Shown in pieces: positions 1-13,609 of a DNA stretch of 64,000 nucleotides. The first letter of the stretch is position 1; the number at the start of each line of letters is the position of its first letter. Source of the DNA: a virus; the IMG/VR virus record IMGVR_UViG_3300032053_000003, positions 94,392 to 158,391 of that record; one strand, 5' to 3'. The translations under genes and the position numbers were made by a program. The notes beneath the pieces are model-generated. The model saw nothing but the letters and a program-made list of their open reading frames with translations, made no database searches and was not told where the DNA came from.

Positions 1-1
1 T

Positions 2-217
2 ATAGAACAGTCAGAGTATAATAAGATAGAGATAGAGATCTTGGCAAAGGTTGATAAGATCCTCGGCTATAAGGCAAAGAAGATCCCTGTGTTTGCTAAT
101 AGTGATTCTCGTGGTTCTGCTCTGAAGATCAAGGGGGATTGGGTTCATAAGAACAATGCTACCATTTATACTGACATGGGTGGTTATGGTATTCTTGCAC
201 CTGACTTTAGAGATTAG
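2..217 (+). CDS. 3' fragment of an upstream gene (hypothetical protein, C-terminal 71 aa)
   Basis: Frame 2 is open from the window edge to TAG at 215-217 (…GYGILAPDFRD*). There is no start codon in the window. Confidence 0.4.
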   Translation: MEQSEYNKIEIEILAKVDKILGYKAKKIPVFANSDSRGSALKIKGDWVHKNNATIYTDMGGYGILAPDFRD

Positions 218-226
218 GAGTTGGTC

Positions 227-412
227 ATGACAAAAGCCAAAGAAGTTCTCAAAGCACTTCATGAGACCGATGATAAGAAGGCTGATAGTTGGAAGGTCTT
301 CATCAATGGTAAGGACACTGGTATTGTAGAGACCAACTATGAGTATGCCAACAAATATTGGGCAAAAGTAGCTGTAGCTAAGAAGGCAGTCATAGAGTTG
401 AAAAAACAATGA
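227..412 (+). CDS. small hypothetical protein, MSKA-tag family (MTKAKEVLKALHE…)
   Basis: ATG 227 lies 6 nt after an AGGAG SD. The track's 221 start is TTG. The N-terminal tag motif is present. Confidence 0.65.
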   Translation: MTKAKEVLKALHETDDKKADSWKVFINGKDTGIVETNYEYANKYWAKVAVAKKAVIELKKQ

Positions 413-424
413 GGAGATTGATCT

Positions 425-754
425 ATGTCCAAAGCAGAAACTTTACTCCAGTCACTCTCTGAGGCTGAAGAAGAAAAGGGAAAGACCTTATATTTTTCTA
501 CACAAAACGGTAACAGATTCGTGATATCCCTTGAACCTGGTTCACTGGGGCATGTCATGAAGTACAATGAGCATACCTTCCCTCTTCCACATACCTCATG
601 GGTAGTCACAGGTTTCTCTAAAAACTCACAGAAGAACAGTCCTGATTTCAAAGTCACTCCTGATCTTACCAGGGAAGCTATTAAAGGTAAGTATGTGTGG
701 GACCTGGATCATGGTACTACAAGAAGGTGGGGAGATAAAATAAGCAAGTACTGA
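425..754 (+). CDS. hypothetical protein, MSKA-tag family (MSKAETLLQSLSE…)
   Basis: ORF track entry. A GAGGAG SD lies upstream. Tag motif present. Confidence 0.65.
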   Translation: MSKAETLLQSLSEAEEEKGKTLYFSTQNGNRFVISLEPGSLGHVMKYNEHTFPLPHTSWVVTGFSKNSQKNSPDFKVTPDLTREAIKGKYVWDLDHGTTRRWGDKISKY

Positions 755-763
755 GGGGTAGAA

Positions 764-817
764 ATGTCGAAAGCCAAGGAAGTTCTCAAAGCACTTTATG
801 AAACTGATCGGGGATAA
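764..817 (+). pseudogene. truncated duplicate of the N-terminus of gene 227 (MSKAKEVLKALYETDRG*)
   Basis: About 90% nucleotide identity over ~40 nt to 230-270. Stop after 17 codons. Confidence 0.45.
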
Positions 818-833
818 ATTCTAGGGGGATGCA

Positions 834-1199
834 ATGAATGTATCTGAATCCAAAGGCTGGGAAGACATTAAGAAGTGGTTAAAGATAAAGACCAAGGATG
901 AGATCGATGATGATGAAGATAACATGTATGACATGAATAACAGTGTGAGCAAAGCAAGGAAGCTCCTTAAGGTTATAGAGGAGGCTCAAACGGGATACTA
1001 TCAACAATTAATAAGTAAGAATCTATCTGATTCAAGTATAGATCCTCGATGGGTAGAGGCTCATTTACGTCTTGATCATGGAACTCTGGATTCTTTATCT
1101 GTTGAAGAGTTTAAGATTGAAATACCTGAAATAATTAAAGTTATTAAAGAAGAAGGTAAACAACAAGCAGAGAAGTTGGCACTTTCTTATGGTTTATAA
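834..1199 (+). CDS. hypothetical acidic protein
   Basis: ORF track entry. GGGGGA SD. No tag motif. Confidence 0.55.
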   Translation: MNVSESKGWEDIKKWLKIKTKDEIDDDEDNMYDMNNSVSKARKLLKVIEEAQTGYYQQLISKNLSDSSIDPRWVEAHLRLDHGTLDSLSVEEFKIEIPEIIKVIKEEGKQQAEKLALSYGL

Positions 1200-1209
1200 G
1201 GAGTGGACA

Positions 1210-1407
1210 ATGAACAGATCTCAACAGATTATCTCATTATCGGAAGAAAGGGGTAAGTTCTCTTACTCTGATGGTAAGGTGCAGGTTAACAAGGGAAGGA
1301 TCGGTTCTCTTGCTCCTCAATATGTCACAAGGGAGTATCTCACTGCTTTAAAAAAAGAGATCCAGAATTGGTTGGAAGAGGTAGACAAGGAGCTTGCCAA
1401 ATCATGA
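1210..1407 (+). CDS. small hypothetical protein, tag variant (MNRSQQIISLSEE…)
   Basis: ATG 1210 follows an AAGGAG SD and the previous stop at 1197-1199. Confidence 0.55.
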   Translation: MNRSQQIISLSEERGKFSYSDGKVQVNKGRIGSLAPQYVTREYLTALKKEIQNWLEEVDKELAKS

Positions 1408-1649
1408 ACAGAGCCCAGCAGATTATCTCATTATCGGAAGCCTCTCAGAAACTTTCTAGTGTAGCTGAGACTATCTCAGGGATCTGGGATAAGGGTCATG
1501 ATAAGAAGCCAAGAATCTTTCGTGTCATGCCTCTCTCGTGGTTCTGGGCAGGTACCATAACCAAAGACCAGCTAGACCAGGATGACGATAATGCTGATGG
1601 TGGAGATGGTGGAGGGGATTCTGGTGGAGATGGAGGAGGTGGAGAGTGA
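1404..1649 (+). CDS. small hypothetical protein, tag variant (MNRAQQIISLSEA…), Gly/Asp-rich C-terminus
   Basis: ATGA overlap with the previous gene. The first 39 nt are nearly identical to 1210-1248. Confidence 0.55.
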   Translation: MNRAQQIISLSEASQKLSSVAETISGIWDKGHDKKPRIFRVMPLSWFWAGTITKDQLDQDDDNADGGDGGGDSGGDGGGGE

Positions 1650-1665
1650 GTAAGGCAAAAACTTT

Positions 1666-1923
1666 TTGAGTATACTGGATGAGGGTAAAGAGAAAATCCG
1701 ATGGGAGCCTAATACAGTAGGTGGAATCAAAGGAATTTATCTATCTCGTTCAGATGTTGAATTTAGGATAGACGTTAATCCCCATAAGAGTAAGTACTCT
1801 TGGATGATAGGCAGAGCTTCCAGTGATCGGTTTATTGAGCAAGGGGAAGCAGGTACAGAGGAAGATGCTAAGAAACAGGCAATCAAGTTTCTTAAGGGTA
1901 TGGAGGCAAGGGGGATAGCATGA
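1666..1923 (+). CDS. hypothetical protein. Probably a frameshifted MSKA-tag gene (GTG1646 MSKAKTF* joins TTG1666 SILDEG… across a T5 run)
   Basis: Frame 2 at 1646-1669 encodes MSKAKTF*. Frame 1 continues from 1666 as SILDEGKEK… One extra T would restore MSKAKTFLSILDEG. Confidence 0.45.
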   Translation: MSILDEGKEKIRWEPNTVGGIKGIYLSRSDVEFRIDVNPHKSKYSWMIGRASSDRFIEQGEAGTEEDAKKQAIKFLKGMEARGIA

Positions 1924-2249
1924 CCAAGGCAGGTACTCTTCTTTCAATGTTGGAAAGCAATAAGACCATTGCTGATGCCAAGGCAAAGATCATGGAGATC
2001 GAGCATTATTCCAGTACTGACTCCATAGAAATCATAAGTTCTTACATGGGTAGTCGTGTTTTGGATGATGACGAGGAAATTCAAGGCACAGTTTATATAG
2101 TATCTCTTGATTCACATGGTGGTGCAAATGTCTATGTGGATGCTCCAAATAAAGATGATGCTGCTGAAGCTGCTGAAGAATGGTGGTTGGAATTCCATCC
2201 TAAGGAAAAGAGTATAGAAGCTGGTCAGATCAGAGGATTGAAATTGTAA
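1920..2249 (+). CDS. hypothetical protein, MSKA-tag family (MTKAGTLLSMLES…)
   Basis: ATGA overlap with the previous gene. Tag motif present. Confidence 0.65.
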   Translation: MTKAGTLLSMLESNKTIADAKAKIMEIEHYSSTDSIEIISSYMGSRVLDDDEEIQGTVYIVSLDSHGGANVYVDAPNKDDAAEAAEEWWLEFHPKEKSIEAGQIRGLKL

Positions 2250-2263
2250 TAAGGAGAGTAGAT

Positions 2264-2497
2264 ATGTCCAAGGCTAGTAATCTTGTTAAGATACTTGAGG
2301 AATTAGCAAGGACTCCCAGTAATGGAGAAGCTGTGTATGTTGATCACCACAAAAATGCAGGTCAGTATGGTGGCAGTAAGGATGTATATACTGTGAAAGG
2401 TGTGGAGAAGGATGACCTTATTGTTAAACTTGAAGGAGAGGACTCTATTAAACGGTATATTGCTAAATTTGGGTTAAAAATAAAAAATCGTGGTTGA
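2264..2497 (+). CDS. hypothetical protein, MSKA-tag family (MSKASNLVKILEE…)
   Basis: AGGAGAG SD. Tag motif present. Confidence 0.65.
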   Translation: MSKASNLVKILEELARTPSNGEAVYVDHHKNAGQYGGSKDVYTVKGVEKDDLIVKLEGEDSIKRYIAKFGLKIKNRG

Positions 2498-2524
2498 TAA
2501 AGGAATAGTTTAGGAGATTAGTTG

Positions 2525-2776
2525 ATGAGTAAAGCTAAGGAAGTTCTTAACTTGTTTGAGGATTGGACTCCTATTCCTGAGCCTGAGAAAAAGAAGAAGC
2601 CCAGAAGATCTAAACAGCTTATTAAGGCTGAGAAAGCCCTGAGGTTTGCTCTGAGTGAGCAGGAAAGGTATATGGGATCTGTTTTTGTCAATGCTCATGG
2701 TCAACGTAAGCATGAGGAACGTGTGGAACAAGCTTATGCTGATTATCGTAGAGCAGGTGGGACTCTGGATATCTAA
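2525..2776 (+). CDS. hypothetical basic protein, MSKA-tag family (MSKAKEVLNLFED…)
   Basis: ATG 2525 follows the TTG at 2522. TAGGAG SD. Confidence 0.65.
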   Translation: MSKAKEVLNLFEDWTPIPEPEKKKKPRRSKQLIKAEKALRFALSEQERYMGSVFVNAHGQRKHEERVEQAYADYRRAGGTLDI

Positions 2777-2781
2777 GGGAG

Positions 2782-3426
2782 TTGATTATGAAGAAAGAAT
2801 TGAGTGTCTTTGATAAGCACCAACTTGCCATTGCCTACAAGACAATGAAGATGTCTGATGCAGGTGCTCTCATTATGGGTGGTATGACCAAGGCAGAGGC
2901 CAAGGAGATCATCAAGAAGTTTACTGGCAAAGAGTACAAGGAGTCCAAGGATACCTCTCTTGAGGGTGTGTTCAATATGAATGGTGCAGGGTGGGCAAAA
3001 GTAGATTATGACCCCAAAGGTATAATCTTTACCTTCAAGATAGGCCAAAGGGAGAAGGAGAAGGCTTTCATAAAGGATCTCAAGCAGGATAACTATTCCT
3101 ATCAGTATGTTGATGATGACAGTATCCTTGTGCATTATAGTAAGCATGAGGGCAGGGGAAATGGAATGACTAAAGCCAAACAGCTCATCCAGACCATATC
3201 TGAGACTGTTCCTGAGGCAGAGGAAGGTATCAAGGTATGGGCACAGGAAGGTCCTAACGGCTATACTATCCTTACAGGTAATAATAAGCCAGATCCTGGC
3301 TTTGGTAAGTATTACAGCCAGTTCCTTGGTATTGTGAAGGATAAGGAAGATTTCAATAAGAAGACCAACAATGGATGGGACATTGGCAGGGTCCCCCTCA
3401 AGGTCCTCAGAAAGAGATTTGAGTAA
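2782..3426 (+). CDS. hypothetical protein with an internal in-frame tag (…GMTKAKQLIQTISE at codon 129, ATG 3166 with its own SD)
   Basis: ORF track entry. A nested in-frame ATG at 3166 is preceded by AGGGGA. Confidence 0.55.
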   Translation: MIMKKELSVFDKHQLAIAYKTMKMSDAGALIMGGMTKAEAKEIIKKFTGKEYKESKDTSLEGVFNMNGAGWAKVDYDPKGIIFTFKIGQREKEKAFIKDLKQDNYSYQYVDDDSILVHYSKHEGRGNGMTKAKQLIQTISETVPEAEEGIKVWAQEGPNGYTILTGNNKPDPGFGKYYSQFLGIVKDKEDFNKKTNNGWDIGRVPLKVLRKRFE

Positions 3427-3436
3427 GGAGCAGCCG

Positions 3437-3709
3437 ATGTCGAAAGCTAAAAAGTTCTTGAAAGAGTCCAATGTTAAAGGTGTCCTTCAGGATTATACAG
3501 ATCAGCTTACCAAGATAGGGAAGAACCTGGGCCAAGAGTATAGGCAGGTAGCTGCTGAGATAGAGAAGGTAGTAAGTGAATTGGGTAAGCAGGATAACTA
3601 TGATCAGGTATCCAAGATCACCTCTGCCCTCTCTGATGCCCAGTCTGATTTAGCTTTCTATGTTAAAAGTCTGAGAACAGTGATATTGGATCTTGAGAAC
3701 GAAGATTAG
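3437..3709 (+). CDS. hypothetical protein, MSKA-tag family (MSKAKKFLKESN…)
   Basis: ATG 3437 follows a TAAGGAG SD. The track's 3371 start is upstream of it. Confidence 0.65.
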   Translation: MSKAKKFLKESNVKGVLQDYTDQLTKIGKNLGQEYRQVAAEIEKVVSELGKQDNYDQVSKITSALSDAQSDLAFYVKSLRTVILDLENED

Positions 3710-3732
3710 AATGACTAAAAACAAGAGGAAAT

Positions 3733-4038
3733 ATGCCAGCTACCCGAAATATTGAAACAAGGATTCTCTACATAGCTCAGAGGTGTCATAGCATCTCTGC
3801 TAAACTAGTTAACAAGGAACAGATTATCATAAGTCTTCAGATGCTCAATCTGGTGTGGTCTACTTCAAATCCTGAGTATCAGCAAAGGTATTTGAGGATG
3901 GCTCTGGTTGCCTATGGTAGGGCTATGAAAGAGAACGCTCTTCCTGTTGATAGAGACTTAAGAGGTGTTTATAAAGAGTCCTTCTCTCCAGAAGAGTTGA
4001 AAGAGATGGAGAGAGATATGCTCAATGAGGATGTGTGA
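3733..4038 (+). CDS. hypothetical protein
   Basis: ORF track entry. SD present. Confidence 0.5.
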   Translation: MPATRNIETRILYIAQRCHSISAKLVNKEQIIISLQMLNLVWSTSNPEYQQRYLRMALVAYGRAMKENALPVDRDLRGVYKESFSPEELKEMERDMLNEDV

Positions 4039-4041
4039 ATC

Positions 4042-4365
4042 ATGGACTGGAAACAGACATTGGATAATCTTAATACTCTCTTTGTAGCTGCTACTGATGC
4101 TTACACTTCTGGAGATAAGAAGGGGTATAAGAAAAAGAGTAAAGAGTATGATGATGTATTATCTGAAGTGCCTACTGATGTACTGAAGCAGATTGTAATC
4201 AGTAAAGAAAGAGGATCTGCTAATTCCATGGTAGCACAGGAATTAGCAGATAGGTATAATGTACTTCCTCATGAGAAAAAATTGAGATTTTCTTATAGTG
4301 ATTGGATTAAATTAGTACCTAATGAATCCAAAGCTAAGAAACTTATAAGTAGTCTTTTGGATTAG
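4042..4365 (+). CDS. hypothetical protein
   Basis: ORF track entry. Tight spacing with neighbours. Confidence 0.5.
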   Translation: MDWKQTLDNLNTLFVAATDAYTSGDKKGYKKKSKEYDDVLSEVPTDVLKQIVISKERGSANSMVAQELADRYNVLPHEKKLRFSYSDWIKLVPNESKAKKLISSLLD

Positions 4366-4372
4366 GGTTAAG

Positions 4373-4666
4373 ATGGGTCTGTCTATTATTTATTCTGAGC
4401 TGCAGGAACTACTTACAAATTACCCCTCAGATATAAGGGAGAGCATAGTATCATATCTTGAGGAGATCTCTTCAGACCTCAATGACACTCGTAACATCTT
4501 AGGTATGTTTGAACATGATGCTACCTCTGATGGTATTGCAGACAAACTAGCTGAAGAGTTGATCCAGGATATGACCAAAAGGATCAAGGTTTTCAATAAA
4601 GATATGCTGGAGATGATCATTAAGACTGAGTTAGATTACCTAACTAAAATAAAGAAGGGGAGATAA
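4373..4666 (+). CDS. hypothetical acidic protein
   Basis: ORF track entry. Confidence 0.5.
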   Translation: MGLSIIYSELQELLTNYPSDIRESIVSYLEEISSDLNDTRNILGMFEHDATSDGIADKLAEELIQDMTKRIKVFNKDMLEMIIKTELDYLTKIKKGR

Positions 4667-4668
4667 CC

Positions 4669-5067
4669 ATGGGAAAGGCTGCTAATTTGATAAGTATGCT
4701 GGAGGCTTCACTAGATCCTGAAGTTCAGAAGATTGTTGGTCAGATCGATGGTGCCCTCCAGAAGATAGTGGACTCTACCCTTCGGAGCAGTGATCTCGGT
4801 AACTCAGGGGACCACCTCTACAAGATCGTTACAGCAAAAGATGGGAATGACTATGCTCTGTTTAGTGTTCCTGTGATTACTCAGGGTGGTGACAGAGCTG
4901 AGAACTCCAATGCCAACTTCAAAAAGATAATTGATCATGTTTGGGGCTTGAGGGACCAAGGTTACTATATCTCACAGCCAGTGGGCAAGAGTGGTAGTGG
5001 GTGGGAGAACAAGAACAGTGGGACTGCTGGTGTTGTAATGCAGTTCTATTTTGGCAAGAACAAGTAG
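4669..5067 (+). CDS. hypothetical protein, MSKA-tag family (MGKAANLISMLEA…)
   Basis: AAGGGGAG SD. Tag motif present. Confidence 0.65.
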   Translation: MGKAANLISMLEASLDPEVQKIVGQIDGALQKIVDSTLRSSDLGNSGDHLYKIVTAKDGNDYALFSVPVITQGGDRAENSNANFKKIIDHVWGLRDQGYYISQPVGKSGSGWENKNSGTAGVVMQFYFGKNK

Positions 5068-5076
5068 GAGGGTTCA

Positions 5077-5223
5077 ATGCTGTTAGCCATTTTAGTGTGT
5101 CAATCATGTGGCACAAAATTCCAAGCTGATCTGGATTGTGGTGATACAGCCTGTCCTCAGTGTGGAAGTAGCAGTACACAACCTACCACTGATACCTCTG
5201 GTATTAAAAAGATAATCAAATAG
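5077..5223 (+). CDS. small zinc-ribbon protein (48 aa, CxxC…CxxC)
   Basis: MLLAILVCQSCGTKFQADLDCGDTACPQCGSS… Below the 60-aa track cutoff. GGAGGG SD. Confidence 0.45.
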   Translation: MLLAILVCQSCGTKFQADLDCGDTACPQCGSSSTQPTTDTSGIKKIIK

Positions 5224-5232
5224 GAGCCCAAT

Positions 5233-5769
5233 ATGAAAAGCAAAGCTGCTGTCTTTCTAGATATCATGGAGAAGGAATATGACCCTAAGGATTATGTTCC
5301 TAAAGCCATGCAGTGGTGGAATAAGCTGGCCCCTGAGCAGCAGAAGGACTATCTTGCAAAATTAGCAAAGACTGCACCAGATAAAGTAGCTCAGGTTTAT
5401 CAGGATCTCTATGGTACATCTCCTGCAGCAGATTCACACTCTGAAGATATGTCCAAGACGAAGAAGGTTCTTGCTGCTGCTGTTCTTGCTGCTTTTATGA
5501 TGGTAGGTTCAGGTGCTGCCCATGCTATTGATTATCATGTAGTGGGTAAGGATAGTAAGGGTAATCCTATCTATGCAACAGGTGGTGCCAGTAGTGGCAC
5601 TACTCAAGATAAAGTAGTTAAGACTGTAGATGCAGCTGGAAAACTTTTAAATGTTGGTGCAGCAACTATAGGTCAGTTTGGCAATCAGCATTCTCAGCAG
5701 AGAGCTTATAAAGCTTCCAATGATGTTAATTTTGTTGTGAGTGTTCTGAAGGCTTTGACTGGTAACTAA
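5233..5769 (+). CDS. hypothetical protein with internal hydrophobic helix, MSKA-tag-like (MKSKAAVFLDIMEKE…)
   Basis: ORF track entry. TAGGAG SD. TM-like segment VLAAAVLAAFMMVGSGAAHA. Confidence 0.6.
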   Translation: MKSKAAVFLDIMEKEYDPKDYVPKAMQWWNKLAPEQQKDYLAKLAKTAPDKVAQVYQDLYGTSPAADSHSEDMSKTKKVLAAAVLAAFMMVGSGAAHAIDYHVVGKDSKGNPIYATGGASSGTTQDKVVKTVDAAGKLLNVGAATIGQFGNQHSQQRAYKASNDVNFVVSVLKALTGN

Positions 5770-5771
5770 AA

Positions 5772-6134
5772 GTGGTCAGTAAAGCTGGTCATTTTTTAAG
5801 TATTACTGAAGATGTCATGAAAACTTATTATCATGTCACAACTGAAAAGGCTTCACGTAAGATCTTAGTTAATGGATTATCTCCACGTAAGGGATCAAGA
5901 AGTCGTGATTTTGGTGAGGAAGACCCAGCTATATTTCTTTTCACTTCTATAGAAGAGGCTGAAGATGCTGTAATGAACTGGTTAGGTGATAAGTACAATG
6001 AGAGCACACCTCTTGTATTATTGGAGATAAAGGTTCCTTCAGATTTTGAAATCACAAAAGTAAATGGTCAGTTTGAGGCTGTAAGTATAGTACCTATACC
6101 AGCAAAGTACATCAGATTATTGAAAGAGTTATAA
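5772..6134 (+). CDS. hypothetical protein, tag-like N-terminus ((M)VSKAGHFLSITED…)
   Basis: GTG start at 5772. Tag-like N-terminus. Confidence 0.55.
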   Translation: MVSKAGHFLSITEDVMKTYYHVTTEKASRKILVNGLSPRKGSRSRDFGEEDPAIFLFTSIEEAEDAVMNWLGDKYNESTPLVLLEIKVPSDFEITKVNGQFEAVSIVPIPAKYIRLLKEL

Positions 6135-6143
6135 AGGAGATAA

Positions 6144-6419
6144 ATGGAGCTTCGTAAAGTAATTGGGGCTTTTGTTGATAAGATGGAGGTAGTCCCTATG
6201 TCCAAAGCAGGACAGTTTATTGAAGATGTTAAGGATGAGTTTGGATTTTTAGGGGCTGTATCTGATAAGTCCTCTCCTGTACAATATCGTATTCATGCTG
6301 AAATGAAGGATGGTAATGTAGGCATTACTCCATGGTATACAGAGGCAAGCCTGGATGCTCTTAAGAAGGACATAATTAAACAAGGTCACAAAATTATTAA
6401 GATAGAAAAAAAGGTATAG
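6144..6419 (+). CDS. hypothetical protein. A tag start (MSKAGQFIEDVKDE) lies at an internal ATG 6198, which has its own SD
   Basis: Both 6144 (AGGAG SD) and 6198 (GGAGG SD) are plausible starts. Confidence 0.55.
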   Translation: MELRKVIGAFVDKMEVVPMSKAGQFIEDVKDEFGFLGAVSDKSSPVQYRIHAEMKDGNVGITPWYTEASLDALKKDIIKQGHKIIKIEKKV

Positions 6420-6429
6420 GAGACATCCC

Positions 6430-7653
6430 ATGTCAAATAAGCCCAAAGAAATAACAGCTATCTATGATCTCGGTGATGAATCTAAGTATGCTGACAGGTA
6501 TACTGTTTTATTCTCCAAGAAGGATTTTCCTGATGTGAGTAATTCCCAATATGTCCAGTCTCTTGGTATGTCAGGTAGTCCTGATCATCCTCAAGGTGTT
6601 TCCCAGTGGGGAGAGGCTCTTCCTGGATCTCATCTTGGAAAGAAGATCAAATGGGACAGCCTTCCTGACAATGTCAAGAAACATATTATCAAGAGATTGA
6701 GTAATGATAATGAGTCTCATGTCAAACTGAGAAGGTCATGTAACAGAGCCAAAGATTTATCCAATCTGTCTGAAGATCTTAACTTCAAAAAAGGTAGTAA
6801 GATCCATATCAGAGCACATTCAAGTAAGAAGGGTAAGGGTCTCTCCTATGAGGCTATGAATGTTACTGCTGATGAGGATGGCAGGTCAGGAGGGTGGGAT
6901 GTCTATGATGGGACCGATGAATCTGGAAACGAGATAAGTTTCTATGGATTCTCTGTTGATAAAAAGGGATGGAGTAAGTCAGAGAATTTGAGAAGATCGT
7001 TTAACAGATCCAGGGACCTCACTGCTCTGGCAGAAGAGGATGCTTCATCCTACTTTGTACTTGCTGATCCCAAGGAAGCTGATAAGATTGTGAGATCAGG
7101 GAAAGATGATAAGGCCCTCTTTAAAGGTACTGCTGAAGATGCAGCTAAGTATGCTAAGGATAAGTTGTCTGGTAAGGATGCTGTGATGCTTCAACGTGAT
7201 AGTCAGGGTAAGTACAAGTATGCTGTAGGTAGTGATGATAAGAAAGCAGGATCAGCAGCAATTACACACGAAAGAAAAACTGGAGGTAAAAGTATGAGCA
7301 GAGCAAAGGATATTACAAAGTTGGTAGAGAGTGCTTCAGTGAATGAGATGTATGCTCTTGGGGCTGATCATATAGTGAATTGGCTCAAGAAGACAGCATA
7401 CGAAAGGTTTGATGTTGATCCTTCGGCAATCTCCGTGGTCCCTTGGCCTCAGGATGGGTCAGACTTCAACATCACTTCCCCTCTTTCCAAGGAGCAGTAT
7501 GAGGAGTTGTCTGAAAAGATCACTAGGACATATCCTTTGTATGTGGTGGAGTTTGTGGACGGTGGAGTTATGAAGTTCTTTTCCTCACGTACTGTGGGAA
7601 CGGACCCTGCCAATACCGAAGAGATATATCCTCGTGACAATATGCTTCCGTAA
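6430..7653 (+). CDS. hypothetical 407-aa protein with three internal tag-like motifs (NRAKDLSNLSED, NRSRDLTALAEED, MSRAKDITKLVES). Polyprotein-like.
   Basis: ORF track entry. Internal repeats of the tag motif. Confidence 0.6.
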   Translation: MSNKPKEITAIYDLGDESKYADRYTVLFSKKDFPDVSNSQYVQSLGMSGSPDHPQGVSQWGEALPGSHLGKKIKWDSLPDNVKKHIIKRLSNDNESHVKLRRSCNRAKDLSNLSEDLNFKKGSKIHIRAHSSKKGKGLSYEAMNVTADEDGRSGGWDVYDGTDESGNEISFYGFSVDKKGWSKSENLRRSFNRSRDLTALAEEDASSYFVLADPKEADKIVRSGKDDKALFKGTAEDAAKYAKDKLSGKDAVMLQRDSQGKYKYAVGSDDKKAGSAAITHERKTGGKSMSRAKDITKLVESASVNEMYALGADHIVNWLKKTAYERFDVDPSAISVVPWPQDGSDFNITSPLSKEQYEELSEKITRTYPLYVVEFVDGGVMKFFSSRTVGTDPANTEEIYPRDNMLP

Positions 7654-7661
7654 TAGTTAGG

Positions 7662-7692
7662 AATTAGGGTTGGTTTACTGCTGACCCTAATT
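7662..7692 (+). terminator. putative intrinsic terminator
   Basis: AATTAGGGT, a 13-nt loop, then ACCCTAATT, followed by a T-rich tract. Confidence 0.45.
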
Positions 7693-7761
7693 CTTTCCTA
7701 TCTCATTTTACCTTATGCATCTTGAGCTGTATCTTGAGATTGATTACGGAAAGGAGTCGTT

Positions 7762-8322
7762 ATGGGAGTGATGGTGGATTGGCAAGCTACAGGTACCATT
7801 GTTACAGCTGTGGTAGCCTTGGTTGCATCTATTTGGCAGTATTTCGTAGTTATTTCAGGTGTAAGGAAAGATATTACTGATTTGGCTACTGGTGTAAGGA
7901 AAGATATTACTGATTTGGCTACTAACCTAAGAGTAGAGGCTGTTACTGCAAATAAAAGTGTGATGGAAACTCTGGCTATTCAAGGGAGTAAGATAACCAG
8001 GATAGAGACTCAAACTGAGTTATTTTGGAATGCTGTGAGTACTTCTATATCTAATCTGATTAAGCAACCGATTCATTTTAAAAAAGATCAGTTGATGGAT
8101 AAACTCATTCCTGTAAATATGCCTCATTTGCCAGAAAGTACTATTGAAGAGTTGGTGGAGTTGAGACTTATTCTCAAAGACGAGCTAGTAATGTTACAAG
8201 AAGTGAAAGACCCAAAAGCTTTAGCTTATGCCCTTGCTATAGCTTACATAGATCAAACTCTTTATGATAAGGGGCTTATAAAAGGAGAATGTCATGAGCC
8301 TGTTGTCTATGAGCCTGTCTAA
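7762..8322 (+). CDS. hypothetical membrane protein with a perfect 11-aa tandem repeat (GVRKDITDLAT x2)
   Basis: N-terminal TM helix. A 33-bp perfect tandem duplication at 7858-7923. Confidence 0.55.
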   Translation: MGVMVDWQATGTIVTAVVALVASIWQYFVVISGVRKDITDLATGVRKDITDLATNLRVEAVTANKSVMETLAIQGSKITRIETQTELFWNAVSTSISNLIKQPIHFKKDQLMDKLIPVNMPHLPESTIEELVELRLILKDELVMLQEVKDPKALAYALAIAYIDQTLYDKGLIKGECHEPVVYEPV

Positions 8323-9352
8323 TTCGTTATTACTAATATTTACTCTCCTTCTACAGGTTGTTATTGGTTTATATGGTTGGAAAATTTTGAAGATAGCCGA
8401 CTATATTGATATTTGGAGGAAGGGTTGGGCCTTTTTCATTATAGCAGCTGTAACGACTCTTCTGAGAAGAGTATGCGAGTTAGTGGGGTTAGGTGTTAAT
8501 AACTATACTCATATTATGTTATCTGTTGTCTCTACTGTATTTTTATTATTGTTTATCTATTGCATAGCTAAGGTATTTGTTAATATATCAAAGTTGCATG
8601 ATGAGAGTATATTTACCACTGTTCTTAAAGAGATTCCTATAGGTATTCTTATTCATGATTTGGACTCTTCCGTTGTGTACTCTAACCCCATGGCTTCAAA
8701 GATTCTTGGTACTACAGAATCTTTATCTGGACTCTTTACCAGTAAACAGTGGCATTTTTTAAGAGAGGACTCAACACCTCTTCCTGAAGATGAATATCCA
8801 GTAAATAGGATTATTAAGTCAGGTAAAGCATTTTCTAATATGGTCATTGGTATCAATCATCGTAAGAGTACACTGTGGGTGCTGTGCAATGCTTATTTTA
8901 TAAATGAAAAGAACCAGGTTGTTACTGTATTTGCTGATGTAAGCTACCTTAAAAGAATGGAGGGAGAGTTAGGGCTGTCTGAAGAAAAGTACAGGAGAGC
9001 TTTTATGTCCAGCCACGATGGAATTATCATCAGTAGGATGTCAGATGGTCTGGTTAACTCCATTAATAAAACTTTTACTATCCTTACTGGTTATACAGAA
9101 GAGGAGATCAAGGGCAAGACTACTATTGATCTTGGTATCTGGAAAAACATTGAGGATCGTAATAAGGTTGTTTCTGACCTTCAGAGTGGTAATGGGGTTA
9201 TGGACTTTGATTGCTATTTTGTCCGTAAGGATGGGAAAGATTTACATGGGCTAGTATCTGCTTCAACATTAATTCTTAATCAAGAACTTTATATCCTTAC
9301 ATCTGTAAGAATTGTGCAAGAGAGACTTAATAATCAAAGAATAGGGGATTAA
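8294..9352 (+). CDS. membrane-anchored PAS-domain protein (about 3 TM helices, two PAS-like domains, no output domain)
   Basis: Hydrophobic N-terminus. PAS-like blocks (…DGIIISRMSDGLVNSINKTFTILTGYTEEEIKGKT…DFDCYFVRKDGKDLHG…). Confidence 0.55.
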   Translation: MSLLSMSLSNSLLLIFTLLLQVVIGLYGWKILKIADYIDIWRKGWAFFIIAAVTTLLRRVCELVGLGVNNYTHIMLSVVSTVFLLLFIYCIAKVFVNISKLHDESIFTTVLKEIPIGILIHDLDSSVVYSNPMASKILGTTESLSGLFTSKQWHFLREDSTPLPEDEYPVNRIIKSGKAFSNMVIGINHRKSTLWVLCNAYFINEKNQVVTVFADVSYLKRMEGELGLSEEKYRRAFMSSHDGIIISRMSDGLVNSINKTFTILTGYTEEEIKGKTTIDLGIWKNIEDRNKVVSDLQSGNGVMDFDCYFVRKDGKDLHGLVSASTLILNQELYILTSVRIVQERLNNQRIGD

Positions 9353-9375
9353 TAAAATAAGAATGGAGGTACATT

Positions 9376-9675
9376 ATGAAGATATCATTTTGGAAAGCAT
9401 TAGGGATGGCAGGGCTTCTTGCTGATGAGCTTACTAAGGCAGGAGCAGATGGCAAGGTATCTTTCGATGAGGCTCTGGTAATAGCCAAGGATCTCTCTGT
9501 ATCAGCAGGATTACCCTTTGATGATAAGGGGACTGCTTTGGTGGTTACTACAGTTACTGATCTGATCAATGCAGCTGCTGATGGCAAGATCACGATTGCT
9601 GAGATGATAGCAATCACTGAGAAGCTGTGCAATGCACTGGGGATCGAGTTTGATAAGACCGGCTTCAATGTATAA
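9376..9675 (+). CDS. hypothetical protein with an internal duplication
   Basis: ORF track entry. GGAGG SD. Confidence 0.5.
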   Translation: MKISFWKALGMAGLLADELTKAGADGKVSFDEALVIAKDLSVSAGLPFDDKGTALVVTTVTDLINAAADGKITIAEMIAITEKLCNALGIEFDKTGFNV

Positions 9676-9695
9676 GGATTAGGTGGAGGGAACCC

Positions 9696-9974
9696 ATGAG
9701 CAAAGCAGGAGAGGTTTTAAAAATTATTAATGAAGTAAAAAAAGATCCTGAGTTGCAGTCATCTGATCCTAAAAATGCTAACAGGGCTCTTAAGGCTTTT
9801 CATAAATTGAATCCTACAGTTGATAAAGGGTTTAAAGCTAAGGTTGTATTTGAGCATGGTCATCTTTGGATAGTACATCCTAATGGTGGACAGTGGGATG
9901 TTGTGGATGCTGATGGTCCTGGTACTATAGATGGATTCAGTTTTGAACAGGTAAGTGAACCTGAAGATTTTTAA
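9696..9974 (+). CDS. hypothetical protein, MSKA-tag family (MSKAGEVLKIINE…)
   Basis: The SD and first codons (GGGAACCCATGAGCAAAGCAGGAGA) are duplicated at 9996-10020. Confidence 0.65.
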   Translation: MSKAGEVLKIINEVKKDPELQSSDPKNANRALKAFHKLNPTVDKGFKAKVVFEHGHLWIVHPNGGQWDVVDADGPGTIDGFSFEQVSEPEDF

Positions 9975-10001
9975 GTGGATAAGTAAGGTAAGGGGGAACC
10001 C

Positions 10002-10316
10002 ATGAGCAAAGCAGGAGATTTTATAAAAGTACACGAGACCATATTGTCAGATATTGGTGATCGTTTTGAGTCAACAGTAAAAGCTCTTAGAGATGCTGGG
10101 TTTCTTACAGCAACCTACAGCAAGGGAGATGCTTTTACTCCAGCACAGATCACCCTTGATAATGGTATTGTCATCTCCATTGACAATGATAGTGGTAATC
10201 TGGAGATCCAGCCTGATCCAAGATATATTGCATCCCTCCATAAGAAACAGAGGTTCTTTACTCCTGGGGATCTTATCCAGGCTTTGTCAGGGATGACAAA
10301 GGTAGGTTATCCATGA
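10002..10316 (+). CDS. hypothetical protein, MSKA-tag family (MSKAGDFIKVHE…)
   Basis: Same start segment as 9696. Confidence 0.65.
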   Translation: MSKAGDFIKVHETILSDIGDRFESTVKALRDAGFLTATYSKGDAFTPAQITLDNGIVISIDNDSGNLEIQPDPRYIASLHKKQRFFTPGDLIQALSGMTKVGYP

Positions 10317-10597
10317 CAAAAGCTCAGATACTTCTGGAGAAGATCAAGGAGCCTGTCCCTAAGTTTAAGAAGGGGGATAAGGTAAAGCTTCGTAGTGATG
10401 TCCTGAAGAGGCATTCTAAGAGTGTACCAGCTCATGCTGGATACTCTAAGGAGCAGTTTTCCTGGAGAGCAACCCTTGATAACCTTGAAGGTCAGGTTGG
10501 CACTATTGAGAGGACCTTCCCTAACTCAAAGCATGTCAATGTCCAGTTCCCCAGTACATTGATTGGCATTGATTCTACTGAGCTTGAAGGAGCCTGA
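10313..10597 (+). CDS. hypothetical protein, MSKA-tag family (MTKAQILLEKIKE…)
   Basis: ATGA overlap with the previous gene. Confidence 0.65.
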   Translation: MTKAQILLEKIKEPVPKFKKGDKVKLRSDVLKRHSKSVPAHAGYSKEQFSWRATLDNLEGQVGTIERTFPNSKHVNVQFPSTLIGIDSTELEGA

Positions 10598-10598
10598 T

Positions 10599-10868
10599 AT
10601 GTCAAAAGCAAAGAACCTACTCGATTTATTGCCAAAGGATAAGGGTAAAGGGAGTGTCCTGGATGCTCTAAATGCAGGGAAAGATCCCTACACTTTTAGT
10701 GGTTATCGGATAGCTGAGAATCCAAATGGGGATGAGCTGTGGGCTTTCTCTGCACATTCGGACAAGGTAGCAGTGAAGCACTCCAATGGTAAGTGGGATA
10801 CTGATCTTTCAGTTTTCCCACATATTGTACAGGGGAGACCTCGTAAAGCTCCAACACCTTTAAAGTGA
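10599..10868 (+). CDS. hypothetical protein, MSKA-tag family (MSKAKNLLDLLPK…)
   Basis: ATG 10599 follows the previous stop at 10595-10597. GAAGGAG SD. Confidence 0.65.
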   Translation: MSKAKNLLDLLPKDKGKGSVLDALNAGKDPYTFSGYRIAENPNGDELWAFSAHSDKVAVKHSNGKWDTDLSVFPHIVQGRPRKAPTPLK

Positions 10869-10877
10869 GGAGATCTT

Positions 10878-11021
10878 ATGAATGACGATGAAGATATCTA
10901 TGGATGTCCTTTTTGTGGGAAAGAACTTGGGGACTCTCTACCAGACAAATGCCCTGCCTGTAAGATGCCTATCCATCGTGAAGATGTTGAGGTATATAAG
11001 GATGAGTCTTTAAGGAGATAG
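10878..11021 (+). CDS. small zinc-ribbon protein (47 aa, CPFCG…CPACK)
   Basis: GAGGAG SD. Below the track cutoff. Confidence 0.45.
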   Translation: MNDDEDIYGCPFCGKELGDSLPDKCPACKMPIHREDVEVYKDESLRR

Positions 11022-11023
11022 GT

Positions 11024-11353
11024 ATGACAAAGGCTAAACAGGTTCTTAATATGTTGGAGGGTACTTTTGATATAGGCAATGACTCCTCCTCACATAACAT
11101 CATTGTCAAGATCAAGGGAGTAGATAAGGACTTCTACAAGGCTCCTTTTGGTAGGCAGATTGATGACCTCAAGAAGGTAAAAGCCTTTACAGGTACTGCA
11201 AAAACTGCTTATGTTGATGCAAAGCATAAGGGGACCTTGGCTGCTGTTAAGCAGTGGATCAAAGCAACGAATCCTTCTGAGTATTATGCAAAATGGAAGA
11301 AGGACTCCAGCAATTACAAGGATGACTCTGTTCAAGTATTCTACATAGATTAG
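11024..11353 (+). CDS. hypothetical protein, MSKA-tag family (MTKAKQVLNMLEG…)
   Basis: AAGGAGATAGGT ATG context. Confidence 0.65.
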   Translation: MTKAKQVLNMLEGTFDIGNDSSSHNIIVKIKGVDKDFYKAPFGRQIDDLKKVKAFTGTAKTAYVDAKHKGTLAAVKQWIKATNPSEYYAKWKKDSSNYKDDSVQVFYID

Positions 11354-11366
11354 AGGTAGGTTATTG

Positions 11367-11630
11367 ATGGCAACTGCTATACCCAGTCTTAAACATTGGC
11401 AGAAACATAATGCAGGTCAGTACACTTTTGAAGATCTAAATGGTTACCACTGGGAAATATCCCCATGGGAATGGGGTTTTAACTTAGCAGTACGAAAATG
11501 TGAGGATAAGAAGAAGTGGATCTGGATAACTCTGGACAGTAAAATAGCAGCTAAAGCTGGAGTATCCTATAATAATCTGTTCAACACTCCAGCTCTTGCA
11601 GCCAAAGCAGCTGCTAAAGTACAGTTATAA
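11367..11630 (+). CDS. hypothetical protein
   Basis: ATG 11367 follows the TTG at 11364. Confidence 0.5.
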   Translation: MATAIPSLKHWQKHNAGQYTFEDLNGYHWEISPWEWGFNLAVRKCEDKKKWIWITLDSKIAAKAGVSYNNLFNTPALAAKAAAKVQL

Positions 11631-11640
11631 GGAGATCACT

Positions 11641-12411
11641 TTGAAAATAGCAGATGAACTGATCCCAATGTTTTTGATAGATGTGATGGAGGATGGGGAC
11701 CCTACTCCATCGGCTCCAGGAGGTACTACCATCTCTCAGAATAACTTAGGGCAGGTGCTGCCTACCTATTTCCCCAAGTTTATCAAGAAACGTAAGAAGC
11801 TCATTGAACCCTACAAAGACTTCAGGAAGTCCCAGGATGCCAAGCAGGGACACCATGGCAGTGAGTACACCTACCATAATGGTATGAGGCAGTGGGTTAA
11901 CTCCACAGCAGGTAAGAAGTTCTACAGAAACCTGAGTACCTTCCTGGCTAATCGTGAGCCTGGTCACATGCTCAATCGGTATGAGTCTTCTGAGTTGGCT
12001 TCACTACTCTCTTCCTATCGTACACATGCTCTTCTTGAGCTGAACTATTACAAACCTTTCTCTGAGGAAGTAGACTTCTTCCTTGCTATTGAAGGTGTGA
12101 TTAAGCTCATTGACAAGTACACTGCCCAGATCCTTGAGAAGGTTTTCAAGTATGATGACTTTGAGATCACCGAAGATCTCTATAGCACTATCTTCAGAAT
12201 CATGGAGCCAGCTGGTGTAGTCCACTCCCTTGCCGTGAAGACAGGGAAGACAGATGCTGAAGTCGAGAAGCTCTGGGACAAAGCCAAGGAAGTGGTCAAG
12301 GATGAGTATAAGGCTGGTGAGGATGAGGATAGGTACTGGGCCTTGGTTACAGGTACTCTGAAGAAGATGCTTGGTATTGAAGAGGATGATGGAGGGAAGG
12401 TCAATGACTAA
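11641..12411 (+). CDS. hypothetical protein (~256 aa). Start uncertain: TTG 11641 after an AAGGAG SD, or ATG 11668
   Basis: The track's 11596 start overlaps the upstream gene. Confidence 0.45.
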   Translation: MKIADELIPMFLIDVMEDGDPTPSAPGGTTISQNNLGQVLPTYFPKFIKKRKKLIEPYKDFRKSQDAKQGHHGSEYTYHNGMRQWVNSTAGKKFYRNLSTFLANREPGHMLNRYESSELASLLSSYRTHALLELNYYKPFSEEVDFFLAIEGVIKLIDKYTAQILEKVFKYDDFEITEDLYSTIFRIMEPAGVVHSLAVKTGKTDAEVEKLWDKAKEVVKDEYKAGEDEDRYWALVTGTLKKMLGIEEDDGGKVND

Positions 12412-12610
12412 GGCAGGTAAACTTCTCAGTCTTTTTGAATACAAAATGGAACCATCCTACAAAGGTCTTAAACTTGTAAGGAAGGGGTTGGTTCTTCAGG
12501 CACTCAATGATGATGGTTTCACAAAGTATGAAGTTGCCATTGGATCTGGTGGTTATACCAAGGAAGATGTGGATAAGCTGAAACAGAAAATTGATGCAAA
12601 AGCCCAGTAG
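12404..12610 (+). CDS. hypothetical protein, MSKA-tag family (MTKAGKLLSLFEY…)
   Basis: GGAGGG SD. 8-nt overlap with the previous gene. Confidence 0.65.
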   Translation: MTKAGKLLSLFEYKMEPSYKGLKLVRKGLVLQALNDDGFTKYEVAIGSGGYTKEDVDKLKQKIDAKAQ

Positions 12611-12626
12611 TTTCAAGGGGGATCTG

Positions 12627-12827
12627 ATGTCAAAAGCCAAAAAGTTTCTTGGGGAGTACAAGAAAGAGAATAGTGAGTTTCCTGAGCTGGATAAGGTGTC
12701 TTTGGAGTTAGCCCATATGGTATCCAAAGAGATTAATAAGAGAGTAAAGTCTGTTGAATCTAAGATGCCTTACAAAGCTCAGTATGTTCTGGAAGAGCTT
12801 ATCAAGCATCTGGAAGAGATGGTGTAG
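12627..12827 (+). CDS. hypothetical protein, MSKA-tag family (MSKAKKFLGEYKKE…)
   Basis: AAGGGGGA SD. Confidence 0.65.
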   Translation: MSKAKKFLGEYKKENSEFPELDKVSLELAHMVSKEINKRVKSVESKMPYKAQYVLEELIKHLEEMV

Positions 12828-12829
12828 CT

Positions 12830-13141
12830 ATGGGTAAAGCTAAACAGCTTCTTCATTTGTTGGAATATAATGACGATGAGTGGGATGATGGCTCTGAGGA
12901 AGAGAGACCATCAGATGATGACATAATCCTTCATAACTCTGGTACTCTTGGTAGCAGGACCTCAGTATCTGCTAGTGGGAGACATATTGGTGAGTTCAAA
13001 TCCGATGAAGAGGCTGAAAAGGCCATTGTTGATTGGATCAATAGGAACAAGTTCCATCCTGGTATCTGGTATGTTGATGACCATGGTGGTGTGAGTCCTT
13101 ACTCATTAGATCCAAAGAACCAGAAGAAGATCAAGATATGA
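12830..13141 (+). CDS. hypothetical acidic protein, MSKA-tag family (MGKAKQLLHLLEY…)
   Basis: ORF track entry. Confidence 0.65.
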   Translation: MGKAKQLLHLLEYNDDEWDDGSEEERPSDDDIILHNSGTLGSRTSVSASGRHIGEFKSDEEAEKAIVDWINRNKFHPGIWYVDDHGGVSPYSLDPKNQKKIKI

Positions 13142-13488
13142 ACAAATCACAGTCGTTACTATCTAAACTCAATGAATCTGATGGATATACTGTGGCTACT
13201 GCTCTTGCTGAATTGAGAAATGCAGTAAGGCACGATGCTATAAAGTCCTCCAATCCAAATGCTGCTGGAATAGCTCTTGGTGCTTTTGATGATTATGAGA
13301 AGGAATTTCCTAAGAAAGACAGCAGTGATCCTGAGGATCTTAAGAAGGTTCTCAAGAAGCTTCCTGGTTATTTTACTACAAAGTACAGGGATTGGGAGAT
13401 GCCTGAATACCCTTCCAAGTTCTCTTTCTCAGGTATCAATAAGGTTGTAAGAAAGATAGCAAAGCAGATTGGTGTGCAGGTAGATTAG
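13138..13488 (+). CDS. hypothetical protein, tag variant (MNKSQSLLSKLNE…)
   Basis: ATGA overlap with the previous gene. Confidence 0.55.
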   Translation: MNKSQSLLSKLNESDGYTVATALAELRNAVRHDAIKSSNPNAAGIALGAFDDYEKEFPKKDSSDPEDLKKVLKKLPGYFTTKYRDWEMPEYPSKFSFSGINKVVRKIAKQIGVQVD

Positions 13489-13499
13489 ATAACAAATCC

Positions 13500-13509
13500 G
13501 TTTCAGTCC
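13500..13509 (+). promoter_or_regulatory. GTTTCAGTCC motif upstream of the capsid operon
   Basis: The same decamer-like motif recurs at 26771-26806 and heads the 40229-40660 array. Confidence 0.3.
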
Positions 13510-13609
13510 CCTAAGTTTCGGTTTTCTTAATAGATCAGGTATACATTAATCAGTCTTATCTCGGAACAATTTTTAACCTCGTTTTTATCAATAAACACAG
13601 GAGTAATCT

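Follow-up and report, generated by a model that had tools for sequence, protein, structure and literature searches.

Why should genes that encode unrelated proteins begin with almost the same DNA? The question is posed by a 64,000-nucleotide stretch (hereafter the window; positions 94,392 to 158,391 of IMG/VR record IMGVR_UViG_3300032053_000003) of a 230,776-bp (231 kb) contig from an uncultured myophage, in which all genes lie on the + strand and a long series of small genes opens with a common N-terminal peptide, which we call the tag. A preliminary description of the window had pointed to three pairs of gene starts that are near-identical at the nucleotide level, and had proposed recent tandem duplication or recombination at these boundaries as the way in which the tag family diversifies. 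All three pairs are present where it placed them. Our comparisons of the window with related contigs indicate that the near-identical starts are, very probably, both products and substrates of homologous recombination between tag-encoding DNA, and we consider likely the overall explanation in which such recombination is combined with a tag that resembles a capsid targeting sequence (CTS).

The tagged array and its near-identical gene starts

The tagged genes, at least 57 in number and with a median of 89 aa, are small, lie on one strand and are packed closely into an array of about 29 kb, which occupies positions 1–25998 (+ strand) and continues in the source contig for another 3.4 kb before the window begins. 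The 26 kb that precede the tail sheath gene (26885–28510) hold 47 complete tagged small genes (median 89 aa) and several remnants; the 3.4-kb upstream extension adds seven, and another two (35873–36580 and 36599–36973, + strand) are found in the tail region. The alignment of 50 tags gives the consensus M-[S/T]-K-A-x-x-[F/L]-[L/I]-x-h-x-E over 12–13 residues. A position-specific scoring matrix (PSSM) built from the tags detects 52 sites, every one in a + strand coding frame, and none on the − strand. Codon usage within the tag is free (Ser2 is encoded by all six codons, Ala4 by three and Lys3 by both), and we conclude from this free synonymous variation that conservation acts on the peptide. 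The tag also displays the periodicity of an amphipathic helix, with a helical hydrophobic moment of 0.43 versus 0.30 for shuffled residues.

The bodies behind the tags are mutually unrelated, as BLASTP among 66 window proteins returned no paralogous bodies. When 47 tagged proteins were compared with Pfam, one match was significant (SprT-like) and one marginal (E = 3e-4), and five matched different PHROGs families, all of unknown function. The sole tagged protein with a recognisable enzyme family is the 235-aa product of 35873–36580, which carries an SprT-like zinc-metalloprotease domain (PF10263, E = 7.9e-10). Intergenic gaps in the array measure about 10–20 nt, and neither promoter-like sites (26 versus 31.9 expected) nor terminator-like sites (7 versus 8.5 expected) are enriched in positions 1–13600; since these sites show no excess, the Shine–Dalgarno (SD) sequence and the tag are the only recurrent boundary sequence.

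Pair 1 comprises 227–271 and 764–808 (39/45 nt identical, with an exact 18-mer at 242/779). Its first copy (227–274, + strand; first 16 codons, MTKAKEVLKALHETD) is the head of a 61-aa gene (227–412), and its second (764–817, + strand) is an orphan tag without a body; this stub of 17 codons (MSKAKEVLKALYETDRG) has an SD of its own and ends in TAA, in agreement with the stop after 17 codons reported previously. The similarity begins at codon 3. The two tags share 12/14 residues, compared with a family mean of 4.3 and a 99th percentile of 11 for the maximum under column shuffling. Pair 2 comprises 1210–1246 and 1404–1440 (34/37 nt identical, exact 22-mer at 1225/1419), within the tags of a 65-aa gene (1210–1407; tag 1210–1248, + strand, MNRSQQIISLSEE) and of an 81-aa gene (1404–1649; tag 1404–1442, + strand, MNRAQQIISLSEA); in the window, this tag subtype, MNRxQQIISLSE, is restricted to these two genes. 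Pair 3 comprises 9688–9722 and 9994–10028 (both + strand, 32/35 nt identical, exact 25-mer at 9688/9994) and consists of the SD spacer and head of a 92-aa gene (9696–9974, MSKAGEVLKIINE) and of a 104-aa gene (10002–10316); the 25-mer takes in 8 non-coding bases (GGGAACCC) before the ATG.

Two points of the preliminary description need to be narrowed. The SD, which it had included in the shared segments, is common to both copies in pair 3 only; in pair 1 it falls outside the similarity, and in pair 2 just 3/30 upstream bases match. Outside the three pairs the tag had been thought to be conserved at the protein level alone, yet the starts at 12626 and 21297 (21 nt exact) and at 3424–3464 and 21285–21325 (41 nt, 85%) are also alike at the DNA level. 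The three non-adjacent genes concerned (3424–3464, 12626–12646 and 21285–21325) all start with MSKAKKFL, and their likeness at the DNA level implies that head exchange may also span 9–18 kb.

To gauge these identities against codon choice, we used a null model in which tag peptides were kept, synonymous codons were redrawn from window usage and upstream bases were redrawn by column (500 simulations). Four exact runs of at least 18 nt are observed between starts versus 0.4 under the null. The longest runs measure 25, 22, 21 and 18 nt; under the null, the maximum run averages 17 nt, with 21 nt as its 95th percentile. The runs ranked second and third lie beyond all 500 simulations and the longest at the null extreme. 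In per-pair tests, pair 2 shares 9/10 synonymous codons (p = 1.2e-3) and pair 3 has a combined p of 8e-4. Taken alone, the nucleotide identity within the window is suggestive, not decisive.

Junctions at tags in related genomes

Relatives were recovered by exact-protein look-ups and one capsid search; megablast of positions 1–12000 against GenBank phages gave no match and a capsid-based search of IMG/VR no relative. Identical copies were recovered from several samples, together with a strain variant (L009). The contigs L025, L022, L023 and L024 share approximately 80–95% DNA identity with the window in common genes, and the capsid proteins of L011 and L012 are 90% and 85% identical to the window major capsid protein (MCP). 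Tagged-gene arrays are present in every recovered relative with differing gene content, and only a minority of the tagged window genes have orthologues in L011 and L012. The closest cultured capsid relative, from the Rhizobium Kleczkowskaviridae, is 32% identical, and a distant relative whose MCP is 44% identical carries similar tags (MRKSRDVLDAINE, MKASTVLRAVNE) beside its protease. A degenerate tag pattern searched across IMG/VR matched 64 loci, once each and without arrays, and judged by this one pattern tagged arrays seem confined to this clade. Several unrelated viral contigs (L032, L036, L037, L044, L050, L058, L060, L071 and L082), most of them from sample 3300045988, contain a single protein starting with MSKAKEFV[R/K]ESVEVA and no array.

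Pair 2 delimits a single-gene cassette. Gene 1210 is absent from L025, L022 and L023, and L025 has one hybrid tag (at 2088) that joins a 1210-type upstream region (28/30) and first 9 nt to a 1404-type tag and body (25/27 like 1404 on the body side), with the crossover at tag nt 6–10. The 1210-type upstream region in this hybrid corresponds to the intergenic region preceding gene 1210 in L009. The hybrid tag thus identifies the pair 2 repeats as the left (1210) and right (1404) ends of a clean 194-nt single-gene indel, with the crossover inside the tag. L009 itself is 100% identical to the window over 1225–3161, approximately 88% identical over 975–1224 and unalignable left of 975; the switch at 1224/1225 falls at nt 15 of the 1210 tag, and the switch at 975 is also inside a tag. 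The head of gene 1404 (MNRAQQIISLSE) is conserved in homologues of 57–88% identity and is therefore old, so that the word recent, as used in the preliminary description, is not established and could hold for the 1210 copy at most. Directly after its tag, gene 1404 has another tag-like stretch, now decayed (SQKLSSVAETISG), and a Gly/Asp-rich acidic C-terminal tail (DGGDGGGDSGGDGGGGE) is conserved in all of its homologues (P0043–P0052).

Pair 3 bears the marks of a head exchange. Both genes orthologous to 10002, at 18046 in L022 and in the tail of contig L025, start gaggagaatctcATGAGCAAGGCAAAAGAATTTCTC / gaggagaatctcATGAGCAAGGCAAAAGAATTTCTCAAAATACACGAG (MSKAKEFLKIHE) and have a different SD spacer as well as a different head. 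The window gene starts gggggaacccATGAGCAAAGCAGGAGATTTTATAAAAGTACACGAG, matches the L025 9696-type start (MSKAGDFIK...) from about −12 to +27 and is orthologous again from GTACACGAG onward. The L025 orthologue of gene 9696 reads MSKAGDFIKIINE, with four differences clustered in 7 nt of an otherwise identical 66 nt. Judged from these alignments, gene 10002 is a head replacement, via gene conversion or a double crossover. In L022, an unrelated 79-aa gene fills the 9696 slot, with a resemblance limited to the first 13 residues.

The head of gene 227, in pair 1, carries an 'HETD' extension that is lacking in its orthologues in L022 (9229) and L023 (4177), which read ...SE/GE-KADSW, and is found in a 134-aa gene family of the relatives. 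The 764 stub resembles the head of the L023 134-aa gene (4353; MSKAKDVLKTLHETGEPDQ) and the internal tag of a 198-aa open reading frame (ORF) in L022 (TSKAEDVLKALHETGEPDQ), both of which lie downstream of the gene 227 orthologue. L022 has a 64-residue extension joined in frame ahead of the 134-aa gene, and homology sets in at tag codon 2. The head of gene 227 was probably replaced by that of a neighbour, and the 764 stub looks like a remnant of the 134-aa gene; for pair 1 this history is no more than suggestive.

A second cassette (1646–1923, + strand) reads GTG-SKAKTF followed by TGA, with the body in the −1 frame from 1666. The unit 1646–1919 is wholly absent from L022 and L025, in which the next gene joins 1646-type first codons to a 1920-type tag, with the junction in codons 1–4. 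In the 85-aa gene 1666–1923 a frameshift splits the tag, and one extra T in the T5 run at 1663–1667 would restore MSKAKTFLSILDE in frame, colinear with the L012 orthologue. This sequence is identical in five assemblies from different samples; we therefore interpret it as a real de-tagging mutation or a −1 slippage site (U UUU UGA).

Tags also mark the joints of fused genes. The chimeric 121-aa ORF 834–1199 (+ strand) consists of a 37-aa acidic leader, an internal tag (945–983, VSKARKLLKVIEE) and a body; in L009 two separate genes (A', 105 aa; B', 83 aa) take its place, the joint lying at the tag, and alignable similarity to L009 starts at 975, inside that tag. The acidic leader (37–39 residues, ..SEGWKDxQKWL..DDDDEEEYNDMNNS) precedes the tags of three different genes in different contigs (window 834–944; L009 837–953, in A'; protein P0048) and is a second mobile N-terminal module. 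A 212-aa ORF (2788–3426, + strand) contains an in-frame internal tag (3166–3204, MTKAKQLIQTISE). Contigs from sample ERZ27247875 break close to this tag (L009 ends at 3161 and L015 starts at 3164); we did not use this as evidence because assembly breaks have many causes. The 407-aa ORF 6430–7653 (+ strand), which lacks an N-terminal tag and has a polyprotein-like layout, carries internal tags at 6739–6777, 7000–7041 and 7294–7332 (aa 104, 191 and 289). L012 carries modules 3 and 4 of this ORF as two individual tagged genes (4074 and 4525), and L011 as a single tagged gene of 218 aa (3875). A further orphan tag (4324–4362, + strand, ESKAKKLISSLLD; PSSM score 18.6) makes up the last 13 residues of gene 4042–4365, with the stop directly after it.

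Alternative bodies behind identical starts, which had been suggested as a check on related genomes, were found between L022 and L023. These two contigs are 99.4–99.6% identical outside one block, whose left edge lies at +34 nt in a tagged gene: the sequences share ATGTCAAAAGCCAAGAATTTTCTGAATGAAGCAG, being identical through MSKAKNFLNEA, and then diverge abruptly. The right edges fall at −13 and +3 of two other tagged starts, and every other strain-level junction that was mapped likewise lies between −13 and +34 nt relative to a tagged start. The events number about 7–9, according to the way in which linked junctions are grouped. Start zones (−15 to +45) make up only 9–20% of the compared regions, and the probability that all mapped junctions would fall in them is approximately 5e-7 if the events are independent. 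Crossover positions are scattered over about 45 nt (−13, +3, +6–10, +15, +27 and +30–34), and this variation argues for homologous recombination rather than a site-specific enzyme.

Very probably, the SD and tag, as the only sequence repeated at every gene boundary, provide homology patches of 20–40 nt. Crossovers within tags insert or delete single-gene cassettes and leave a tag on each side (pair 2 and the 1646–1919 unit), exchange one gene's head for a neighbouring one (pair 3; probably also gene 227), leave orphan tags where a body is lost (the 764 stub and the 4324 C-terminal tag) and fuse modules in frame (ORFs 834, 2788 and 6430). The comparison with relatives (pairs 2 and 3, and the alternative bodies) directly supports the view that recombination at gene-start boundaries diversifies the tag family.

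Head genes and the putative role of the tag

The genes for a prohead protease (13610–15178, + strand) and a T4 gp23-type MCP (15285–16709, + strand; PF07068, E = 7e-14) sit in the middle of the array. The protease has an N-terminal domain of the gp21/S77 type and a repeat-rich, scaffold-like C-terminal half. It matches phrog_207 (E = 9e-20), is 43% identical to the 'prohead core scaffolding and protease' of Rhizobium phage RHph_TM30 and matches T4 gp21 (PDB 5JBL) by profile comparison (E = 4e-6), and PF03420 is detected in the homologues of relatives. The C-terminal half is probably the scaffold, since no separate scaffold gene lies between the protease and capsid genes, and it is annotated as such in cultured relatives. 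In this half (14300–15178), a helical repeat unit of about 30 residues (LGTPxxIxEAL...) occurs five times ahead of a strongly acidic tail. The capsid protein has a conserved I-P-E at residues 64–66, which comes close to the 65-residue length of the T4 gp23 propeptide (PMC5694885).

Most tags end in a motif compatible with a gp21-type protease. A [LIMVF]-x-E sequence occurs within residues 8–15 in 44/50 tags versus 8.5% of background windows, and gp21-type proteases are known to cut after Glu, in T4 after L/I-x-E (PMC9026906). The first 10 residues of T4 IPIII suffice for packaging and are removed by gp21 (PMC9026906), and the internal (Ip) proteins of T-even phages share only their N-terminal leader, lie in hypervariable hotspots and block host restriction (PMC9026906, PMC3012670, PMC12373910). 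By analogy with these leaders, we lean towards viewing the tag as a CTS-like capsid targeting signal cleaved by the gp21-type protease, and the array as an arsenal of internal proteins. The amphipathic N-terminal helix of the tag would dock the protein to the prohead scaffold/protease core, the gp21-type protease would remove the tag after the conserved Glu of the hydrophobic-x-Glu motif, and the array would be a large and rapidly changing stock of internal proteins that accompany the DNA on delivery. Since the protease would cut the modules apart, in-frame fusions at tags would do no harm.

A bolder version, which we put forward tentatively, is that the array encodes a library of effectors, more than 50 small and unrelated proteins delivered by the capsid, whose packaging tag doubles as a recombination linker. 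The same 36–40 nt would then ensure head loading and injection as well as swapping, gain, loss and fusion between phages, giving a self-sustaining cassette system that is integron-like in function, needs no dedicated recombinase and exceeds the scale of the T-even Ip loci by more than 10-fold.

Several other features of the window were noted. A membrane protein with two PAS domains is encoded at 8294–9352; distant relatives (L020 1963–4029; P0016 contig) encode full PAS–HATPase–receiver hybrid kinases near their head genes, and L011 encodes a receiver-domain protein. Gene 7762–8322 contains an exact 33-nt tandem duplication (7858–7923) that repeats the peptide GVRKDITDLAT. Exact direct repeats in the tail and tail-fibre region, at 40164/40439 (55 nt), 35372/35444 (54 nt) and 54186/54288 (30 nt), are longer than any repeat in the tagged array.

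Alternative explanations and known systems

Several observations weigh against recombination as the source of the shared starts. Codon sharing in pair 1 (9/12) is not among the top 15, and, given the shared peptide, no pair shows codon sharing that remains significant after correction for 1275 pairs. Tags of neighbours do not in general resemble each other more than those far apart (Mann–Whitney p = 0.33), and the history of pair 1 is no more than suggestive, its tag being 31/39 identical to the head of the 134-aa family versus 27–29/39 to the heads of orthologues. Across 24 orthologue pairs, tag identity is 0.63 versus 0.59 at third codon positions of the body, values that reject overall the idea of tags being replaced so often that orthologous tags outdiverge silent sites; as tags diverge about like third codon positions, we regard head replacement as occasional, not pervasive. 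An exception is gene 1920 of the window and its L025 counterpart at 2330, with bodies 95% identical and tags that share only 4/11 residues. The codon results would fit a by-product of the same peptide and biased codons, without shared descent or exchange: sharing is only nominally significant, that of pair 1 is unremarkable, and the null maximum reaches 25–27 nt in rare simulations. The preliminary description had named identities within the expectation from codon choice as grounds for its refutation, and the runs are indeed only marginally beyond that expectation. The excess of runs of at least 18 nt and the ranks of the second and third nevertheless speak against a mere by-product, as do the 12/14 residues shared in pair 1, above the 99th percentile of its null, the non-coding bases in the pair 3 25-mer together with the different heads and SD spacers of the 10002 orthologues, and the exact bounding of the 194-nt indel by the pair 2 repeats. 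The orthologue comparisons support exchange and already largely refute the codon explanation, which we consider very unlikely. Whole-gene tandem duplication, with bodies diverged beyond recognition behind conserved tags, is suggested by the position of pair members, adjacent or one gene apart, and a tag under purifying selection could outlast its body. Synonymous sites in pair 2 have nonetheless barely diverged (9/10 codons) and yet the similarity ends abruptly at the tag end, the bodies of paired genes are unrelated and without paralogues in the window set, and the head of 10002 is unlike those of its own orthologues; the duplication proposed earlier is thus unsupported and, in our judgement, improbable. 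A dedicated, integron-like site-specific system with tag DNA as its attachment site would account for dense, one-directional arrays of units that hold one gene each, bring their own start signal and have a recurring sequence at their borders. The scattered crossover points are unlike a fixed cleavage site, the tags have no inverted-repeat structure, limited family scans covering part of the 64-kb window found no integrase, and T4-type phages recombine efficiently on short homologies (PMC2839356). We give such a system hardly any weight.

The proposed function of the tag meets objections of its own. The window protease itself does not reach Pfam PF03420, the tagged gene just upstream of the protease shows no homology between clades, and 57 packaged species would be, to our knowledge, far more than in any characterised phage. 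The T4 leader, MKTYQEFIAE (10–11 residues), is not homologous to the tag, with only a hydrophobic pair at positions 7–8 and the terminal Glu in common. The tag could instead be a peptide signal for another role, such as chaperone or compartment docking, a degron for timed degradation or the leader for a peptide modification. The number of packaged species and the lack of homology to the T4 CTS favour such a role, as does the presence of two tagged genes in the tail module, and packaging and cleavage are predicted. Against it stand the hydrophobic-x-Glu that ends 44/50 tags and coincides with the known specificity of gp21-type proteases (PMC9026906), the placement of the array around the protease and capsid genes, and the internal tags of fused ORFs, which make sense as cleavage points. 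Two candidates of this kind were rejected: a leader for ribosomally synthesized and post-translationally modified peptides (RiPPs), as 12 aa are too short for a leader, bodies of 59–235 aa too large for RiPP cores and no modification enzymes appeared in family scans, and a Sec/Tat signal, as inspection of the tag consensus by eye revealed no hydrophobic core of the signal-peptide kind. Another peptide role is, on balance, unlikely, though it deserves serious consideration. An element acting as RNA, through translation initiation or the binding of a regulator with peptide conservation being secondary, would agree with the A-rich codons 2–3 (AAA/AAG) and strong SD typical of efficient starts, and phage T4 has regulators that bind initiation regions. 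Such an element would not explain the free choice among the codons of Ser2, Lys3 and Ala4, the conservation that follows amino-acid class and helical periodicity to residue 13, or the retention of internal in-frame tags without ATG (L022 198-aa ORF), and an RNA-level role seems very remote. We therefore retain a CTS-like tag as the preferred reading of its function.

The closest parallel to a recombining, CTS-like tag is found in the internal proteins of T-even phages, where Ip1–3 and more than 30 variants carry a CTS (PMC9026906, PMC3012670, PMC12373910, PMC2839356). As in those phages, small non-homologous and, in the T-even case, non-essential proteins have only a short N-terminal leader in common that ends in hydrophobic-x-Glu, the genes lie beside head genes at loci that differ between close relatives (here L009, L022, L023 and L025), and a gp21-type protease accompanies a gp23-type capsid. 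The present phage is only distantly related to T4 and differs from it in tag consensus and length (MSKAxxFLxhxE, 12–13 residues, versus 10–11 for the T4 leader), in the number of tagged genes in one genome (at least 57 versus 3) and in the occurrence of internal tags in fused ORFs; packaging, cleavage and injection are here predicted from the genes.

Modular shuffling in T4-type phages, as described by Krisch and colleagues (PMC2839356, PMC4122927), is mediated by promoter-early stem-loop (PeSL) cassettes and by repeated flanks of the T-even IP loci (Arbiol et al. 2010; Comeau et al. 2014; Repoila et al. 1994, as related in those later papers). There as here, a short repeat at the borders of ORFan genes serves as a site of homologous crossover, with junctions inside the repeat, and close relatives come to differ by the loss, gain or substitution of individual genes. 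Unlike PeSLs, which are intergenic promoter–terminator modules, the repeat described here is coding (SD and first 9–15 codons), so that crossovers create chimeric heads, orphan tags and in-frame fusions. It also differs from integron cassettes in having no fixed junction and no attC-like imperfect inverted repeat in the tags. The giant phages phiKZ, 201phi2-1 and SPN3US possess many head-internal proteins that are processed after Glu by a gp21-related protease, and the SPN3US paralogues gp53 and gp54 are identical in their N-terminal 15 residues and diverge in the remainder (PMC5694885). Giant-phage propeptides are mostly longer than 100 residues and belong to paralogous families, whereas a 12-residue tag is here attached to dozens of unrelated bodies.

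If the tag is a packaging signal, the array would represent by far the largest known set of virion-delivered proteins, and each tagged protein would become a candidate for a first-strike counter-defence factor. Such proteins could then be sought in uncultured phages by a simple rule at the sequence level, and the tag also suggests itself as a portable means of loading foreign proteins into non-T4 capsids. According to the modular theory of Susskind and Botstein (1978), short conserved linkers at gene boundaries reportedly guide recombination towards functional mosaics. Lambdoid phages have homologies at gene boundaries. Unlike the linkers of that theory, the linker in the tagged array is itself a selected protein signal, and for that reason it is kept at every boundary: each start bears a short coding motif under selection, this motif provides the homology by which cassettes are exchanged, and mosaics arise where the products are still functional. 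Our findings carry the linker-sequence idea, as well as the observations on PeSLs and IP loci, over to an element that is coding and belongs to a distant lineage of jumbo phages. Compared with the T-even and PeSL systems, what differs is the scale (at least 57 genes), the sequence of the tag, the phage lineage and a linker that is coding.

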